Shown one piece after another: positions 6,058 through 36,700 of a DNA stretch of 50,470 bases (position 1 is its first letter; every line of letters starts with the position of its first letter). The stretch is from the IMG/VR virus record IMGVR_UViG_3300020123_000124, positions 1 through 50,470 of that record; one strand, given 5' to 3'. The notes beneath the pieces were generated by a model. That model saw only the letters and a program-made list of their open reading frames with translations, did no database searches and was not told the DNA's origin. A program made the translations under genes and the position numbers. Source of the DNA: a virus (taxonomy: Duplodnaviria > Caudoviricetes).

Positions 6058-6489
6058 TCATGCTCCTTCCTGAGCGGCTTCATCGTTCAACAGTTCAACA
6101 CCGCTTTTCAGGTAGGAATGTATCCAGCCTATTTCACGCTCTCTGGGCGAAACGTTATCGTCAACGACTTCTAACGTTAACATCCAAGGCAGCATATCGG
6201 CATCAAGGATGGCTTGTATCCTATCTTGCTTAGGTTTATTCTCACCTGTCATAAGCATGTGTTGCTTGAATCGAAGATAAAGGTTATTGGTAAATCCAAT
6301 GTAAAAAACTTGTCTATCTCGTGGGTCAACTATTCCATAAATCACCGTTGAACCTTTGTGATAGGCCGCTCCCATGTTGGAGCCATCATTGATACGCTTA
6401 TTGTAGCGGTTCGTTTTGCTGCCATCGAATACGAGGTCTAGCTTCTTGATTTTGCGCTGAGGGGTATCTTGAGGTATAGTATTATCCAT
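6058..6489 (-). CDS. GIY-YIG nuclease family protein
   Basis: VIYGIVDP..VFYIGFT..LRFKQH..ERE..LLN; likely start MDNTIPQ. Confidence 0.85.
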   Translation of the reverse strand: MDNTIPQDTPQRKIKKLDLVFDGSKTNRYNKRINDGSNMGAAYHKGSTVIYGIVDPRDRQVFYIGFTNNLYLRFKQHMLMTGENKPKQDRIQAILDADMLPWMLTLEVVDDNVSPREREIGWIHSYLKSGVELLNDEAAQEGA

Positions 6490-6570
6490 GCGAGAACTCA
6501 CTTTCTTGCATCGGCTAGGGGTATTCCAAGTACCGCCTAGCACCACAATATCTTTACACTCATTATACCA
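6490..6570 (-). promoter_or_regulatory. Extended -10 promoter and hairpin leader of the GIY-YIG gene
   Basis: TGGTATAAT; hairpin GCTAGG-C-GGTA-CTTGGAA-TACC-CCTAGC; second hairpin covering the RBS. Confidence 0.6.
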
Positions 6571-6581
6571 CATAAGTCAAC

Positions 6582-6926
6582 TCACCCCGCCTCAGAAGCC
6601 GCTTCAACAGGTGTTTCTGTTAAAGGAAAATCATAGCCTTCCGTTAAACAATACTCCCACAATTCGTTAACCAAATCACGCCTGACTTCCAACGGCCAGA
6701 CTGTTGTATCAACGTCTTCTACATCGGCAAAGGCTTCAGCAAAGGCTTGAAACTGCTCAGGTGTGCATGTCTCAGCATCACATACCTGTTCCAGTCCTTC
6801 GAGATTGAAGGTCAATCGGTGTAGATCGAGTAACTTGAACCTTCTTTCCTTTTCGTGCTTTGCGGAAGTATTCTGGATATTGCCGTCTGTAGTATCGTCG
6901 CATTTGTTCTGAGACGTAGTTGTCAT
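6582..6926 (-). CDS. Hypothetical acidic protein
   Basis: ORF overlapping the 3' end of the upstream extension by ~150 nt. Confidence 0.55.
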   Translation of the reverse strand: MTTTSQNKCDDTTDGNIQNTSAKHEKERRFKLLDLHRLTFNLEGLEQVCDAETCTPEQFQAFAEAFADVEDVDTTVWPLEVRRDLVNELWEYCLTEGYDFPLTETPVEAASEAG

Positions 6927-7527
6927 TAGGCCACGCTCCATTTCTAGCTTGGACTAGAGTTAACAAATCAATCACTTGTTCGTTTGTTCGCTGCCTCCCT
7001 ATCTTCCCTTTGAAGTGCATTTTTTTTGGAAACTTTGGGCCGGAAAAAATTAACGGCTTCGTTTCCTTATTCGTGCCTGAAAAATTATTTTTTGTTAATT
7101 TTTCAGGCTTCGATTTCTGAACATTTGTTAATGGTTTTTCCTTAACGGGCGTTAAAATCTTCGAAGGCTCTGGCGTTAAACTTTTCGAAGGTTCGGGTTG
7201 CCTCACGACCTCCTGCACAGGTGACGTTGCCACCGTCTCAGGATGCCGAGTCACGACAGGTTGTTCAGGTACGACAGGCTGCACACGCGCTACAGGTTTT
7301 TCGGGTATCACAGGGCGGTACGGTGCGGTGATAAACGGCCTATGTGGTCGTTGGTAGGGCGGTAATGATTCGGGTCGGCGTTTCGGTTGTTCAGGTACAC
7401 GGTCTACAATAGGTGCCGGGTATTCGTAGGGCAGGGGTGGCACAATCTCGATTGGCTCAAAATTGCGCTCTATCCCGATAGGCTCAGATGGCCGGTCTTC
7501 TTCTTCATCTGAGCCTCCTATTTTGGG
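6778..7527 (-). CDS. -1 frame extension (Pro-rich linker plus basic C-terminal domain) of the 7518-8261 membrane protein
   Basis: -1 frame opens exactly at the slippery heptamer (TAG CCC AAA ATA...); no SD at GTG 7443. Confidence 0.7.
   Translation of the reverse strand, partial: PKIGGSDEEEDRPSEPIGIERNFEPIEIVPPLPYEYPAPIVDRVPEQPKRRPESLPPYQRPHRPFITAPYRPVIPEKPVARVQPVVPEQPVVTRHPETVATSPVQEVVRQPEPSKSLTPEPSKILTPVKEKPLTNVQKSKPEKLTKNNFSGTNKETKPLIFSGPKFPKKMHFKGKIGRQRTNEQVIDLLTLVQARNGAWPNDNYVSEQMRRYYRRQYPEYFRKARKGKKVQVTRSTPIDLQSRRTGTGM
7480..7527 (-). other. Programmed -1 ribosomal frameshift signal
   Basis: C CCA AAA (7527-7521) just before TAG; 11-bp stem AGGCTCAGATG/CATCTGAGCCT (7516-7506/7490-7480). 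Confidence 0.75.
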
Positions 7528-8261
7528 CTATTGCCATTGCTTGATATAGGCTCATAGTTCATGAAATCATTGGCCATGCGCTCATTTTCATCAAAGGTTT
7601 TCTGTGCGGCGTCTTCACGATCCTTCGTACGGCGCGCATCTTCCCGTCGTGCAGCTTCATCGGCATCAAGTGGCTCATGTAAAGCAGTCGGATCACCTTT
7701 CCAGAAACGACGAAGGCCAGGAAGCCCCAGGCGTTTTGCCTGCTTATATCCAGTTGTGGCAATCTCACGACCTGCTTGTTCACGTGTTCGCCCGAACTCA
7801 AGAGAGGCTGGTCGGTTCGTCTGCGCGTGGATAATGAGTCCCAGGTTATAGGCGAAGCGTAGCATGAGGATACCGATAATCCCCGTGATAATCGCACCAA
7901 CTGGTGAGACGAACCATGTCATATAGCAGCGATAGGCAAGGCTTGAAAGTTCTAAGGCCGCGACGATCTTCTGACTTTCACTTAAAGCAGGTAGGAAATG
8001 ATTGGTGTTGGATTTACGCTGGTAGGCTTCAAGGTCTTCGCGCGTATACTCGTGATAGACGAAGACGATCATGGCAGCAATAAACAAGACGACACCCATA
8101 ATGATGCCGAAGATCTCACCACCATGTGGGATATCTCCGAGGATGAGGCTTCCTAACAGACGCCCCAGGTAAAACATTCCGATGGCAAACAAGAGGTGGA
8201 CGCCGATACAGACGACGACGATAAGCGTACGGCCAACCTTGCCGTTAAAGATAGCTCGCAT
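7518..8261 (-). CDS. Multi-pass (about 4 TM) membrane protein with charged helical C-terminus
   Basis: Hydrophobic segments; SD GAAAGGA. Confidence 0.8.
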   Translation of the reverse strand: MRAIFNGKVGRTLIVVVCIGVHLLFAIGMFYLGRLLGSLILGDIPHGGEIFGIIMGVVLFIAAMIVFVYHEYTREDLEAYQRKSNTNHFLPALSESQKIVAALELSSLAYRCYMTWFVSPVGAIITGIIGILMLRFAYNLGLIIHAQTNRPASLEFGRTREQAGREIATTGYKQAKRLGLPGLRRFWKGDPTALHEPLDADEAARREDARRTKDREDAAQKTFDENERMANDFMNYEPISSNGNSPK

Positions 8262-8368
8262 ATTCGAGAGTCCTTTCTATGCCTCATCCGTTTATACAGA
8301 CAAGGTGATGAGCCGCGTTGAGAGACTTGGGAGCGCGGCGACTCCCTTTTTTTTGAAGCTTTACGGTT

Positions 8369-8875
8369 TTATGCGCTCAGTGGCTTGCAGGGTAATACTT
8401 GTGAGGTAATCACCAGATTTGGCTCAACAAACGCTATAGAAGTCTTGCCCGTTGCAGGGTCTATCAATTGCACCCAGTCAGCATTGGTATTTCCACCAGG
8501 ATAGAGGGCATTTGGTTCGGGGACAGACCCGCCACTACCACCTGAGTTTGGCTGTGACCACTGTGTATCATACGGCACTCCAAAGCCTTTGACTTTCCCC
8601 AGGCATCGTAAACTTCCATCATTCGCAGCAATGTAGGCATTCAGCACAAGTTGAGGATTATCACGCGCTTCATAGATTTGCTTCAACTGCAAGTATTCAT
8701 AGTAGTTTGTGATGTTAGGTGAAGCCCCCCACTTATTAGCGGCTGTATTCGCATTGTTGATAGTGGCCTGTGTTTGTCCTCCACAGGTATCTGCCATAAA
8801 TGCAACTGCTATAAGGCATAAAACAAAGGGCAAGAGGACTTTCCACACAGGGACTTCTTTCTTGAAAATTGACAC
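8369..8875 (-). CDS. Putative lipoprotein/exported protein of a conserved phage family
   Basis: SD AAGGAG with GTG 8875; signal peptide ending ADTC; motifs IYEARD, GFGVPY.TQ, PEPNALY, FVEP. Confidence 0.7.
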   Translation of the reverse strand: MSIFKKEVPVWKVLLPFVLCLIAVAFMADTCGGQTQATINNANTAANKWGASPNITNYYEYLQLKQIYEARDNPQLVLNAYIAANDGSLRCLGKVKGFGVPYDTQWSQPNSGGSGGSVPEPNALYPGGNTNADWVQLIDPATGKTSIAFVEPNLVITSQVLPCKPLSA

Positions 8876-9929: not shown

Positions 9930-10751
9930 TTACAAATTCGCTCTGTAGTCATCACCAGACATGTCAACGGCAATCTGGCCAATAGACAAGCGCGAGCATG
10001 CCGCGCCACCGACGAACACCGCCAGCTCGCTTACACGGTTCGTCGAGAGTGCAATCGGTAAGCCTCTGTTCACACGCTCATTGATAATCTGGAAGTAGAC
10101 ATCTTGCCTGAACTCGTTTGACTTTGCCTTATCTACATCATCCAAGACAAGGAGAGGCGTAAAGATGGCCTTGTGGATAAATTGTGCATACGGTTCGTTA
10201 TGCGCGATACGGTCTTGAATGGCAAAGAACAATTTCGGCATGGTCACAAACCTGGATGCCTTGCCATTGAAGCGCAACGTGTTGACGATAGCGGCGAGCA
10301 AGTGCGTCTTGCCAGTGCCGAAATCCTCAGAGTGTAGGATGAGCGAACCATGCATATCCTGCATCCATTCCTGCACCGTTGCAAAGGCTTCATCCTGATA
10401 GCCTGCCTCGAAGTTACCGAACGCCTTATCAACAAGAGATGCGTCTGACCAGTGCTCGCCAAGCCATTCATAATTCTCTTTGATCTGAGAGACCATGAAA
10501 GCAAGTCTTTCTTTGGCTTGCTGCTTTTCCTGGTAGCGGACTTCGTAACACTGGCATGTCCCTTTAAGCCAGCGACCAGTTAAGACGACGTAGCGCGGGA
10601 TGATCGGGCCGCACTTGGCACATTCGTCATATGCCTCTTCCGGTGTCAGATAGCCGCGGCGCGTGACACCATGCGCGGGGTCTGGTACGTTGCGTCGTTC
10701 TTGCTGCATGCCTTGCTCCAAACGGGCCACAATGCTGTAGATGTTATCCAT
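9930..10751 (-). CDS. DnaC/IstB-like ATPase, helicase loader
   Basis: N-terminal Cys motifs; Walker A GTGKT; Walker B LLVLDD; STN motif; follows initiator. Confidence 0.9.
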   Translation of the reverse strand: MDNIYSIVARLEQGMQQERRNVPDPAHGVTRRGYLTPEEAYDECAKCGPIIPRYVVLTGRWLKGTCQCYEVRYQEKQQAKERLAFMVSQIKENYEWLGEHWSDASLVDKAFGNFEAGYQDEAFATVQEWMQDMHGSLILHSEDFGTGKTHLLAAIVNTLRFNGKASRFVTMPKLFFAIQDRIAHNEPYAQFIHKAIFTPLLVLDDVDKAKSNEFRQDVYFQIINERVNRGLPIALSTNRVSELAVFVGGAACSRLSIGQIAVDMSGDDYRANL

Positions 10752-34988: not shown

Positions 34989-35393
34989 ATGCCAGTTACC
35001 GTTGGGCAGATTACCAGCAATATCGGGAAAGCGACCTTTACCGTCACGATCACGGAAGAAGACGAGAACGGCTCTCTGCACACGTACCAGGAGAAAGTCA
35101 ACCTGACCTACTACCCGGGGCGTGTCACCGAGCGCACCATCGCACTCGCAAATTCGTTTCAGGTGGGTAGTGAAGTTGCCGAGGTCATCGCAGGATTTCA
35201 CGCCTTCAACGCTGAGTTGGTGCGGCTTATCAAATGGTGGGATGTCCTGGAAAATGATGGCGTCACCATGTTCCCGATAGATATTACCCGCCTTGAAGAA
35301 CTCTCGATTGATTTTCGCGGGCAGTTGCTGGTGGCGATTATGGAGGAGATAAGCCCGGAAGCGATAGCGCCTCAGATGAACGGCGCGCACTGA
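34989..35393 (+). CDS. Tail assembly chaperone G
   Basis: SD AGGAG; between tail tube and tape measure. Confidence 0.8.
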   Translation: MPVTVGQITSNIGKATFTVTITEEDENGSLHTYQEKVNLTYYPGRVTERTIALANSFQVGSEVAEVIAGFHAFNAELVRLIKWWDVLENDGVTMFPIDITRLEELSIDFRGQLLVAIMEEISPEAIAPQMNGAH

Positions 35394-35581
35394 GGCGATG
35401 GTTAGCGACCGAGGGTAAGTTCGGAGAGCCGCCAGAGGACTACGTGCTCTTTAAGGCAGCGGAATACATGCGTATCCCAACGCCGCAAATTGTGGATGTG
35501 CCGCTCTGGTGGATCCACAAGGCCATCAATTATATGTCAGCAGAGGCCGAAGCACAACAGATTTTAGCAGACAGGAAATAG
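35354..35581 (+). CDS. Tail assembly chaperone T domain (-1 frame of G)
   Basis: Open -1 frame LRRWLATEGKFGEPPEDY..VPLWW..ADRK*; candidate shift site C CCG GAA 35354-35360. Confidence 0.7.
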   Translation, partial: PGSDSASDERRALRRWLATEGKFGEPPEDYVLFKAAEYMRIPTPQIVDVPLWWIHKAINYMSAEAEAQQILADRK

Positions 35582-35594
35582 CCACATATGGCAA

Positions 35595-36644
35595 TCAGGC
35601 AAGGAAAGCATGCGGAAGTTTTGTTCCTTTGCGGCTATTGCATGAACGGCAAGCGACACGCAGATTATCGGCGGTATGTGAGCCGCCATGGAAAAGAGGG
35701 ATAACATGATCGAGTGTGACGTTTTGAGGCGTGCAGATCAGCCCACAGAGGTAGCACGTCCATTTGTCGCGCTCAATGATAGCCATGCGGTCAATCTTCT
35801 CAATTCTAGATGCATTCAATTGACGAGCGCGGCGTCGATTCTGCGTATCAGTGTGCTTTTCAGGAAATGTTTGCCTCCAAAGGCGTCCATACGCACGCAA
35901 ATGATTCTTGTTTACCATTCCATATTCTTGACGCCACTCACGTCGTTTCTCATATTCCAGACGGCGAAACTCAGGCGTCTCTTTGCTATGGCGAATGCGA
36001 TCATAAGCATGCCGTTCTTTGCGATGAGTCTCATTGTACTCACGATAATACCTTGTGCGATGCTCTTTATTAGCAGCTTCCCAACGATAATACCTTGCGT
36101 GATGCTCTTCAGGATGCTTATACGTCCATTTACGCGATATAGCACGGTAGTGCTCTGGATTGTTGTCATAGAGAAGCTTTTTAAGTGTCTTATCACATTC
36201 TTTGCATTTACCATGTCGCCTTTTCCCACGTTTGCTGTTTGTATAGAACTCGCTCACCGGCTTTTCGACATGGCAGTACGTACACCGCTTGACCATGACT
36301 CCCGCTGCATTCTCAAAAGCACGGTAGAAGCGCCCCGTAGGGTCATTTCGGTACTGCTCACGTCGCTTCTCATGGTCAAGAGCTACTTCACAAACCTTAC
36401 ATCGACTATGAAAGTAACCAGGGTTAGCAGGGCTAAACTCACTAATAGATTTGACTTCCTGGCATCGTTTGCACTGCTTTGTTTGGATTTTGGGTTGTGG
36501 TGGGTTAAGCTTGCGCTTTGCCATCCACTCCTTGTCCGATTTGGTTTTACATTCTCGACACTCAGCACGCCTGCGGCCTCTGCTAGGTTGCATTGCAAAA
36601 GCCTCTTCAGGCTTCTCGATACCACACTTGGTACATCGCTTCAT
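35595..36644 (-). CDS. HNH endonuclease with three N-terminal CxxC zinc-finger repeats
   Basis: SD GGAGG before MKRCTKC; RD...CYLCG..LDHVIPL..GG.H...NL...C..CN..KG. Confidence 0.9.
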   Translation of the reverse strand: MKRCTKCGIEKPEEAFAMQPSRGRRRAECRECKTKSDKEWMAKRKLNPPQPKIQTKQCKRCQEVKSISEFSPANPGYFHSRCKVCEVALDHEKRREQYRNDPTGRFYRAFENAAGVMVKRCTYCHVEKPVSEFYTNSKRGKRRHGKCKECDKTLKKLLYDNNPEHYRAISRKWTYKHPEEHHARYYRWEAANKEHRTRYYREYNETHRKERHAYDRIRHSKETPEFRRLEYEKRREWRQEYGMVNKNHLRAYGRLWRQTFPEKHTDTQNRRRARQLNASRIEKIDRMAIIERDKWTCYLCGLICTPQNVTLDHVIPLFHGGSHTADNLRVACRSCNSRKGTKLPHAFLA

Positions 36645-36671
36645 GATCGCCTCCAATGTTTTGTAGCTAAC

Positions 36672-36700
36672 ATTATAGTACAAGGAGCAGGAGGTGTCAA
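36672..36700 (-). promoter_or_regulatory. Consensus sigma70 promoter of the HNH gene
   Basis: TTGACA(36700-36695)-17 nt-TATAAT(36677-36672). Confidence 0.85.

Follow-up and report, generated by a model that had tools for sequence, protein, structure and literature searches.

A very likely programmed -1 ribosomal frameshift in an early membrane-protein gene of an uncultivated soil phage

The early region of an uncultivated soil phage contains two overlapping open reading frames (ORFs) whose relationship raises a simple question: are they two genes, or a single gene that is partly read through a change of frame? The DNA under study is the IMG/VR virus record IMGVR_UViG_3300020123_000124 (Caudoviricetes), a complete record that is 50,470 bp long and carries direct repeats at its ends; it is called here the window. 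On its minus strand, the first reading frame (ORF1, 7518..8261) encodes a membrane protein of 247 amino acids (aa), and its 3' end is overlapped in the -1 frame by a second one (ORF2, 6778..7527). A first-pass annotation had proposed that they are joined by a canonical frameshift cassette. The comparison of nucleotide and protein sequences presented below makes it very likely that ribosomes shift by -1 at this locus in a programmed manner, within a phage membrane-protein gene that is early and non-structural.

The 3' end of ORF1 reads AGC CCA AAA TAG. It contains the heptamer C CCA AAA (7521..7527, minus strand) in X XXY YYZ phase with ORF1, and the zero-frame stop TAG (7518..7520, minus strand) lies directly 3' of it. 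A putative stimulatory hairpin follows (7480..7516, minus strand), in which AGGCUCAGAUG (7516..7506) pairs with CAUCUGAGCCU (7490..7480) through 11 perfect pairs closing a 15-nt loop (7505..7491). The spacer between heptamer and stem is 4 nt long (UAGG, 7520..7517), or 5 nt, followed by 10 bp, when the outermost A-U pair is left aside. This hairpin is both the minimum free energy and the centroid structure. For the corresponding 101-nt segment the folding energy is -35.8 kcal/mol; shuffled sequences give -22.5 +/- 3.0 (z -4.46), and not one of 200 shuffles reaches as low a value. Moreover, 100 XXXYYYZ heptamers (Y = A/T) can be counted on both strands of the whole window, and only CCCAAAA at 7527..7521 has a perfect stem of at least 9 bp starting 3-9 nt downstream; block-shuffled windows contain on average 0.085 such sites. 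A search of Rfam with positions 6700..8300 returned no family and a sub-threshold small RNA match only. The -1 frame is closed by a TAG (7530..7528) immediately before CCC and is open thereafter over 249 codons, up to the TGA at 6780..6778. The predicted fusion would therefore comprise 247 + 247 = 494 aa, with the junction ..GNSPK/IGGSDEEE.. and the junction peptide ..SSNGNSPKIGGSDEEEDRPSEPIGIER. In all these respects the first-pass annotation was accurate: the 247-aa multi-spanning ORF with its phased heptamer (8261..7518 and 7527..7521), the 11-bp stem placed 4 nt further, the -1 frame shut just before the heptamer and a long form of about 494 aa were all recovered as it had described them.

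The conservation of this arrangement was followed in 31 loci fetched by a profile-guided scan (5 viral, 1 genome record labelled as a Ktedonobacteraceae metagenome-assembled genome, and 25 metagenomic, with several duplicates among them). The junction is reached in 24 of these loci, the other 7 starting within ORF2, and the 24 reduce to 13 distinct junction sequences, or 14 with the window. Both ORFs are detectable by tblastn with the proteins of the window in 17 loci, and ORF2 is found in the -1 frame, overlapping the end of ORF1, in all of them except L021. A phased slippery motif can be observed at the homologous place in each of the 14 distinct junctions, and it is a perfect X XXY YYZ in nine: CCCAAAA in the window, L003 and L008, CCCTTTT in L002, CCCTTTC in L011, L004 and L021, and AAATTTC in L007 and L024. 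The imperfect motifs keep T TTT and consist of GCCTTTT (L006, L014), CTCTTTT (L027), GACTTTT (L009) and GGATTTT (L005). The zero-frame stop follows the heptamer directly in 9 of the 14 junctions, as TAG in all nine, and one codon past the motif in L007 and L024. The site and its hairpin are located 15-19 codons upstream of the ORF1 stop in L004, L005 and L021, where the motif again marks the beginning of the homologous -1 peptide (PF.GGS.., GFSGRS.., PFRESPG..). The motif sequence thus varies among canonical shifty sequences while its slipperiness and phase are kept, a pattern which argues for selection on frameshifting.

The same organization extends to two distant relatives. In L036, a 248-aa ORF with multiple transmembrane (TM) segments precedes a relative of ORF2, and the junction shows AAATTTT in phase and, after a spacer of 6 nt, an unrelated stem of 10 bp; the -1 frame opens here 4 codons upstream of AAATTTT. 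In L035, a phased CCCTTTA is found 17 codons before the stop, followed by a 6-nt spacer and a 5+4-bp stem. The homologues called for by the first-pass annotation thus display a phased slippery motif in all the close junctions and in both distant ones. Both were found in genomes belonging to the class of the one that holds L007; of 169 genomes of this class, 3 match the ORF2 profile. An upstream stimulator resembling a Shine-Dalgarno (SD) element was also considered and rejected: AGGAGG is present next to the stop in the window only, the relatives having GACGG, GATGG or GGTGG.

The hairpin is likewise conserved among the close relatives. A 10-bp stem is present in 14 of 14 junctions, from 5 nt past the heptamer (4-6 nt according to the folded structures). 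Its outer half (GGCUCAG/CUGAGCC) is mostly conserved and its inner half shows compensatory pairs, namely GAUG/CAUC, UCUG/CAGA, GGAG/CUUC, UUG/CAA and UCGC/GCGA. Two counts were made, with fixed offsets and with a covariance model, because MAFFT alignments split the 5' arm with gaps. At fixed offsets, 131 of 140 cells are paired, a value reached in none of 10,000 swaps of the 3'-arm partners (mean 74%), and sliding the 3' arm by 1-2 nt leaves 27-43% paired. The covariance model built from the stem-loops gives exactly one strong sense-strand match in each close locus (14/14, E 6e-9 to 7e-4) and no match in the two distant relatives. In its alignment, 86.2% of 130 cells are paired and two-sided changes affect 5 of the 10 pairs (18 cells); the covariation score reaches 0.336 against 0.129 for shuffled alignments, none of 500 shuffles being as high, and slid registers fall to 23-45%. 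This second alignment is fitted to the structure and hence biased towards it, a bias of which the fixed-offset count is free. Compensatory changes are seen in both counts, which bears out the covarying stem named as a check by the first-pass annotation. A pseudoknot was looked for and rejected: helices between the loop and the downstream sequence are no better than those of shuffled loops (fraction at least as good 0.22-1.00 over the 14 junctions). Since this pairing is at chance level, the element amounts to a plain hairpin.

Coding constraint on the -1 frame sets in at the slip site. In six loci the -1 peptides align from the first shifted codon (PKIGGSDEEE../PFLGGPGDED..) and continue into EPIG.EPNQEP..PIPPYEYP. 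Beyond the stem, the entropies at codon positions 1, 2 and 3 of the -1 frame are 0.30, 0.38 and 0.78 in these 6 loci; this third-position variation, combined with peptide conservation from the slip site, constitutes a coding signature. In the window the first start codon of this frame is GTG 7443 (codon 29), without any SD-like 4-mer at -18..-4, in agreement with the earlier remark that the downstream ORF lacks a usable ribosome-binding site. Across the loci, the first ATG, GTG or TTG of the -1 frame falls anywhere from codon 23 to codon 95 with no conserved position, few loci have an SD-like 4-mer upstream of it, and in several of them the conserved PIPPYEYP block lies upstream of this first start. 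A second hairpin is predicted around the start of the window (7440..7468, minus strand, 12 pairs including G-U) and encloses GTG 7443; its like is predicted in L002, whose sequence is nearly identical, and in no other relative.

These observations have to be weighed against three other explanations. ORF1 and ORF2 could be separate genes, with ORF2 translated from GTG 7443 or by termination and re-initiation, the heptamer and hairpin being incidental or serving the coupling. The existence of GTG 7443, the ATG preceded by AGGAG at codon 27 of L003 and the GTG that overlaps the stop of the distant L035 all speak for such an arrangement, as does the treatment of ORF2 relatives as separate proteins by gene callers. 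The 16 protein relatives of ORF2 found in the 136-436 aa range have, however, annotated lengths of 142-275 aa, which means that gene callers find no consistent start. The scatter of first starts just described, mostly without SD, is likewise difficult to reconcile with separate genes, and neither the window nor L002 has a -1-frame start codon beside the ORF1 stop. In L036 the first start comes at codon 82, inside the conserved module described below. Peptide conservation and the coding signature are already apparent from the slip site on, ahead of the starts, and in L004, L005 and L021 the conserved -1 peptide begins before the ORF1 stop by the 15-19 codons mentioned above, which re-initiation leaves unexplained. 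Neither independent initiation nor termination-reinitiation can account for this conserved N-terminal part, and separate genes are accordingly considered improbable.

Alternatively, the polymerase could add or drop a base in the A or T run and fuse the frames in some of the mRNAs. Short homopolymer runs do exist at the site (A4 in the window, T5 in several relatives). Known bacterial sites of transcriptional slippage consist of about 7 or more A/T, and in 5 of the 14 junctions the runs reach only 3 nt (CCCTTTC three times and AAATTTC twice). Slippage by the polymerase would need neither the constant X XXY YYZ phase with the zero frame nor a covarying hairpin, which stands here at the 4-6-nt spacing typical of ribosomal stimulators; this explanation is judged very unlikely. 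There remains the default worry for any split ORF of a metagenomic contig, a 1-nt indel, genuine or due to assembly, in a gene once continuous, for which nothing specific speaks in this case. Contigs from three independent public soil runs, X3 (7402-7552), X4 (7391-7541) and X5 (7290-7852), span the slip site with 0 differences and 0 gaps relative to the window, the site being outside the coverage of a fourth run, X2. The same -1 arrangement recurs with differing heptamers in 13 other distinct junctions and in the two distant relatives, and the search for an in-frame version came up empty, both in proteins of 437-2000 aa and in 22 representative clusters (drawn from 1.84 billion proteins, all 98-282 aa long). 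A broken gene has therefore a negligible probability. With indel-free contigs, a conserved motif and a covarying stem, those checks of the first-pass annotation that bear on sequence data converge on a programmed -1 frameshift.

Several points nevertheless weigh against this preferred explanation. The heptamer is imperfect at the P site in 5 of the 14 junctions, where only the A-site tetramer T TTT is kept, so that single-tRNA slippage or tolerance of mismatches would be needed. The stem lies within coding sequence, and part of its conservation must consequently be at the protein level. The lack of an in-frame homologue, a weak piece of evidence as regards the 437-2000-aa proteins, leaves the fusion product without a natural in-frame counterpart in these proteins and in the 22 clusters. 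In L035, the GTG overlapping the ORF1 stop (TAGTG) is codon 19 of the -1 frame, and coupled re-initiation could hence give a separate ORF2 in this lineage. Finally, the zero-frame stretch carrying the slip site of L021 and L022 is devoid of ATG, GTG and TTG, and its frame is not that of the ORF1-like gene. In these regions (L021 481..930 and L022 316..765), the ORF1-like gene ends in ..SRN* (L021) or ..NQN* (L022) and is followed by the stretch in question, about 70 codons in another frame with a C..H / CHEC pattern and the CCCTTTC motif. Two successive -1 shifts or a non-canonical start are possibilities for its translation.

Under the frameshift explanation, expression of the locus could proceed as follows. 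Most ribosomes translating ORF1 would stop at the UAG (7520..7518) and release the 247-aa integral membrane protein. Some would pause over the 11-bp hairpin with CCA in the P site and AAA in the A site, or alternatively with AAA in the P site and the slow UAG in the A site. The paused ribosomes would slip back by one base on C CCA AAA and go on in the -1 frame, producing a 494-aa protein made of the same anchor and charged tail, an acidic and proline-rich linker of about 150 aa and a basic, probably helical module of about 60-100 aa. This scheme supposes that it is the ribosome that slips, and often enough to be of consequence. The long form might then attach phage DNA, or a partner bound to DNA, to the membrane, the short form remaining untethered and in a set proportion to it.

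The protein common to both predicted products, ORF1, comprises a hydrophobic part of about 135 residues and a charged C-terminal tail of about 110 aa that ends, just before the slip site, in ..SSNG[HN]S... Hydropathy indicates 3-4 TM segments (13-31, 50-68 and 116-134, with a weaker one around 95-112 in relatives), and an even number of them combined with the positively charged N-terminus would place the C-terminus in the cytoplasm. Apart from the proteins within the loci, relatives of ORF1 form 6 clusters of 247-255 aa, and all share the TM core, an ..ANRP.. motif and the invariant N-G of ..SSNG[HN]S.. near the end. ORF1 and ORF2 have no match below E 0.05 in Pfam or PHROGs, ORF1 finds nothing useful in the ESM Atlas (best 0.78), and a search with ORF1 alone detected no related loci in viral contigs. 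In L011, L024 and L027, the ORF placed before the same slip site, hairpin and ORF2 encodes a different-looking and longer membrane protein (314-319 aa); this protein is not detected by tblastn with the ORF1 of the window, and its tail also ends in ..S.NG... On the basis of these three loci, the membrane part of the cassette seems to be exchangeable.

The -1 part of the long form starts with the acidic and proline-rich linker (7078..7520, minus strand), which varies in length and sequence with the exception of ..EPIG.EPNQEP..PIPPYEYP.., and it ends with a basic module (6781..7077, minus strand). Proline accounts for 21% of the first 150 residues and the isoelectric point (pI) of the last 99 residues is 10.9, values that fit the proline-rich linker and basic C-terminal domain of the first-pass annotation. 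The core of the module, GRQRT..VIDLLT.VQ..G.WP..VS.QMRRYYRR.YPEYF, corresponds to positions ~6999..6862 of the minus strand. Two other features of this region can be mentioned: an inverted repeat of 13 pairs (GCCTGAAAAATTA..TAATTTTTCAGGC, 7075..7108) flagged as terminator-like on the plus strand lies inside the linker of ORF2, and the linker of L014 (-1 ORF of 287 codons) contains a zinc-ribbon-like CxxC..CxxC insert.

The possible function of the module is suggested by its occurrence in other proteins. By phmmer, matches were obtained to P0029, P0035, P0036 and P0038 (E 9e-9 to 3e-4), in which the module is C-terminal to a GIY-YIG domain (PF01541, 26.7-39.6 bits for a cut-off of 22.6). The protein encoded by L035:1102-1776 likewise combines the module with a GIY-YIG domain, here at 20.8 bits and thus below the 22.6 cut-off; it matches P0001 by BLASTP (E 9e-14 over 64 aa) and the window's own GIY-YIG gene with an E of 9e-22. 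The latter gene (6058..6573, minus strand, PF01541 at 26.2 bits) is without the C-terminal module carried by its relatives. From the distribution of both parts, this looks like domain shuffling between neighbouring genes. In GIY-YIG homing endonucleases of the I-TevI type, the C-terminal position holds a DNA-binding domain. The location of the module behind GIY-YIG domains and its basic pI would thus be indicative of nucleic-acid binding, the GIY-YIG fusions lending indirect support to the 'possibly DNA-binding' domain of the first-pass annotation, and it can be proposed tentatively that the 494-aa form is a membrane-tethered binding protein maintained in a set ratio to the 247-aa form. This functional proposal, doubtful as yet, is weakly grounded in several respects. 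Neither ORF matches Pfam or PHROGs, as stated above, and sequence-profile searches of the PDB with two alignments gave 0 matches at E <= 10. In the ESM Atlas the C-terminal module falls into unnamed clusters only (0.92-0.93), and the sole hint of a helix-turn-helix comes from one of them, which has HTH_Tnp_Tc5 in 10% of its members.

The 3' end of ORF2 is itself overlapped, in its +1 frame, by an acidic ORF of 114-119 aa (6941 or 6926..6582, minus strand). The overlap amounts to about 146-161 nt, GGAG is found 9 nt before the second ATG (6926), and the acidic ORF adjoins ORF2 in every locus that extends that far. In 20 loci the acidic frame is open for 152-188 nt upstream of the ORF2 stop (326 in L006), with 1-2 conserved ATGs in the overlap. 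Third-position entropy in ORF2 drops from 1.04 in the module outside the overlap to 0.54 within it, and in the last ~20 codons the third positions are almost invariant and the first positions variable, which means that the downstream frame is constrained there. Judged by these codon patterns, the overlap is a genuine, conserved dual-coding stretch. A more speculative view, considered rather improbable, combines these elements into a three-layer recoding cassette of phages infecting probably Ktedonobacteria, with a -1 shift setting the ratio of a free membrane subunit to a form that bears a DNA-binding module on a long proline-rich tether, an acidic +1-frame protein binding and regulating the module, and an exchangeable membrane part. 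If this were true, the conserved unit would consist of slip site, hairpin, tethered module and overlapping partner, and early in infection it would be the long form that holds phage DNA, or the target of the adjacent GIY-YIG nuclease, at the membrane.

The description of the locus as early and non-structural follows the layout of the window. The structural block runs rightward (terminase, portal, major head and large tail ORFs), and the early block runs leftward with a DNA methyltransferase, a weak match to a replication initiator and a DnaC-like helicase loader (9930..10751). The cassette is part of this minus-strand early/replication operon, downstream of the DnaC-like loader, and no DNA match to 6500..8500 was obtained by blastn in the phage collection. 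The 107-nt gap upstream of ORF1 contains a terminator-like hairpin on the plus strand (8329..8346 plus T8), the nearby genes being all on the minus strand; similar GGGAG..CTCCC and CCTnATCC..GGATGAGG repeats can be recognized by eye upstream of ORF1 in L002. In the tail region, a chaperone-like 134-aa ORF (34989..35581, plus strand) is located upstream of the putative tape measure gene, and the -1 frame runs 62 codons past its stop. Its last 40 codons have no perfect phased X XXY YYZ, and the structural frameshift expected there would therefore use a non-canonical site. Between the chaperone-like and tape measure genes lies a 362-aa ORF of the opposite strand (35595..36683, minus), with many CxxC pairs and a C-terminal HNH-like motif seen by eye, which is possibly a homing endonuclease insertion.

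The significance of this cassette can be considered at several levels. Its comparative support is as strong as that which established the tail assembly chaperone case, and it concerns an early, non-structural membrane-protein gene in a phage lineage without cultured member. From the point of view of annotation, it defines a new recoding family, each member of which would, if not recognized, enter the databases as a pair of 'hypothetical proteins' whose starts are arbitrary. The 14-16 natural heptamer and hairpin variants represent a compact set for studying what governs frameshifting in a translation system of the Chloroflexota type. A step in the DNA metabolism of the phage that involves tethering to the membrane is a further possibility raised by the cassette.

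How does this cassette compare with known systems? According to a review and to annotation guides, frameshifting in tailed phages is documented or annotated almost only for tail assembly chaperones and for capsid or tail proteins; in SEA-PHAGES, tail chaperones represent 2397 of 2476 joined genes. In the phage frameshifting literature searched, mostly at the level of abstracts, no case in a membrane or early gene was found, predictions in the PRFect supplement aside. Within the limits of that literature, the mechanism, a heptamer followed by a hairpin, is known and canonical, and the gene family and its early membrane-protein context appear to be new.

The best described example is the G/GT tail assembly chaperone of lambda, for which the review PMC5009743, on the work of Levin (1993) and of Xu, Hendrix and Duda (2004), describes a -1 slip close to the gene's 3' end yielding a short and an extended product. 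As in that case, the two predicted products of the cassette share their N-terminal part, and diverged phages keep the site although its sequence changes. In contrast to G/GT, which encodes chaperones and is found between the genes for the major tail and tape measure proteins, the cassette belongs to an early operon and has an integral membrane protein as its zero-frame product. An identity with G/GT was considered and excluded by the early minus-strand position, the tail region being situated at ~33.6-45.6 kb on the other strand. The lambda frameshift is not known to need a strong hairpin, and the covarying hairpin kept in all close relatives here marks a difference. In Lactobacillus phage A2, a review describes -1 frameshifting as a means of capsid extension. 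The A2 products are structural virion proteins with an immunoglobulin-like extension, unlike those of the present non-structural gene. The major head and tail frameshifts of A2, associated with Garcia in 2004 and Rodriguez in 2005, reportedly use the same heptamer, C CCA AAA, as the first-pass annotation also states, and a stem-loop located downstream, where the ORF ends.

Outside virion genes, the dnaX gene of Escherichia coli (tau/gamma) and the transposases of the insertion sequences (IS) IS3 and IS1 combine X XXY YYZ with a downstream hairpin in non-structural genes, giving two domain sets in a set ratio. The dnaX shift truncates the protein and is helped by an upstream SD-like element, and the IS elements fuse a DNA-binding N-terminal part to a catalytic part. 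The cassette differs from dnaX in having no conserved SD-like element, and it has no sequence relation to dnaX or to the IS families. As regards architecture, the closest parallel is p16.7 of phi29, presented in PMC4974454 as an early protein that is anchored in the membrane by its N-terminal part, binds DNA or the terminal protein through its C-terminal part and recruits replicating DNA to the membrane. The long form would resemble it by its membrane anchor and its early-operon position, DNA binding being suggested here by the pI and by the GIY-YIG fusions. Unlike the cassette, p16.7 is a single small protein without recoding, and the likeness concerns only architecture and genomic neighbourhood. 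Lastly, the module occupies in 4 clusters and 1 locus the place where the C-terminal DNA-binding domain sits in GIY-YIG homing endonucleases of the I-TevI type. In contrast to these enzymes, the module of the window is predicted to be joined through a frameshift to a membrane protein, next to a GIY-YIG gene which is itself without it.

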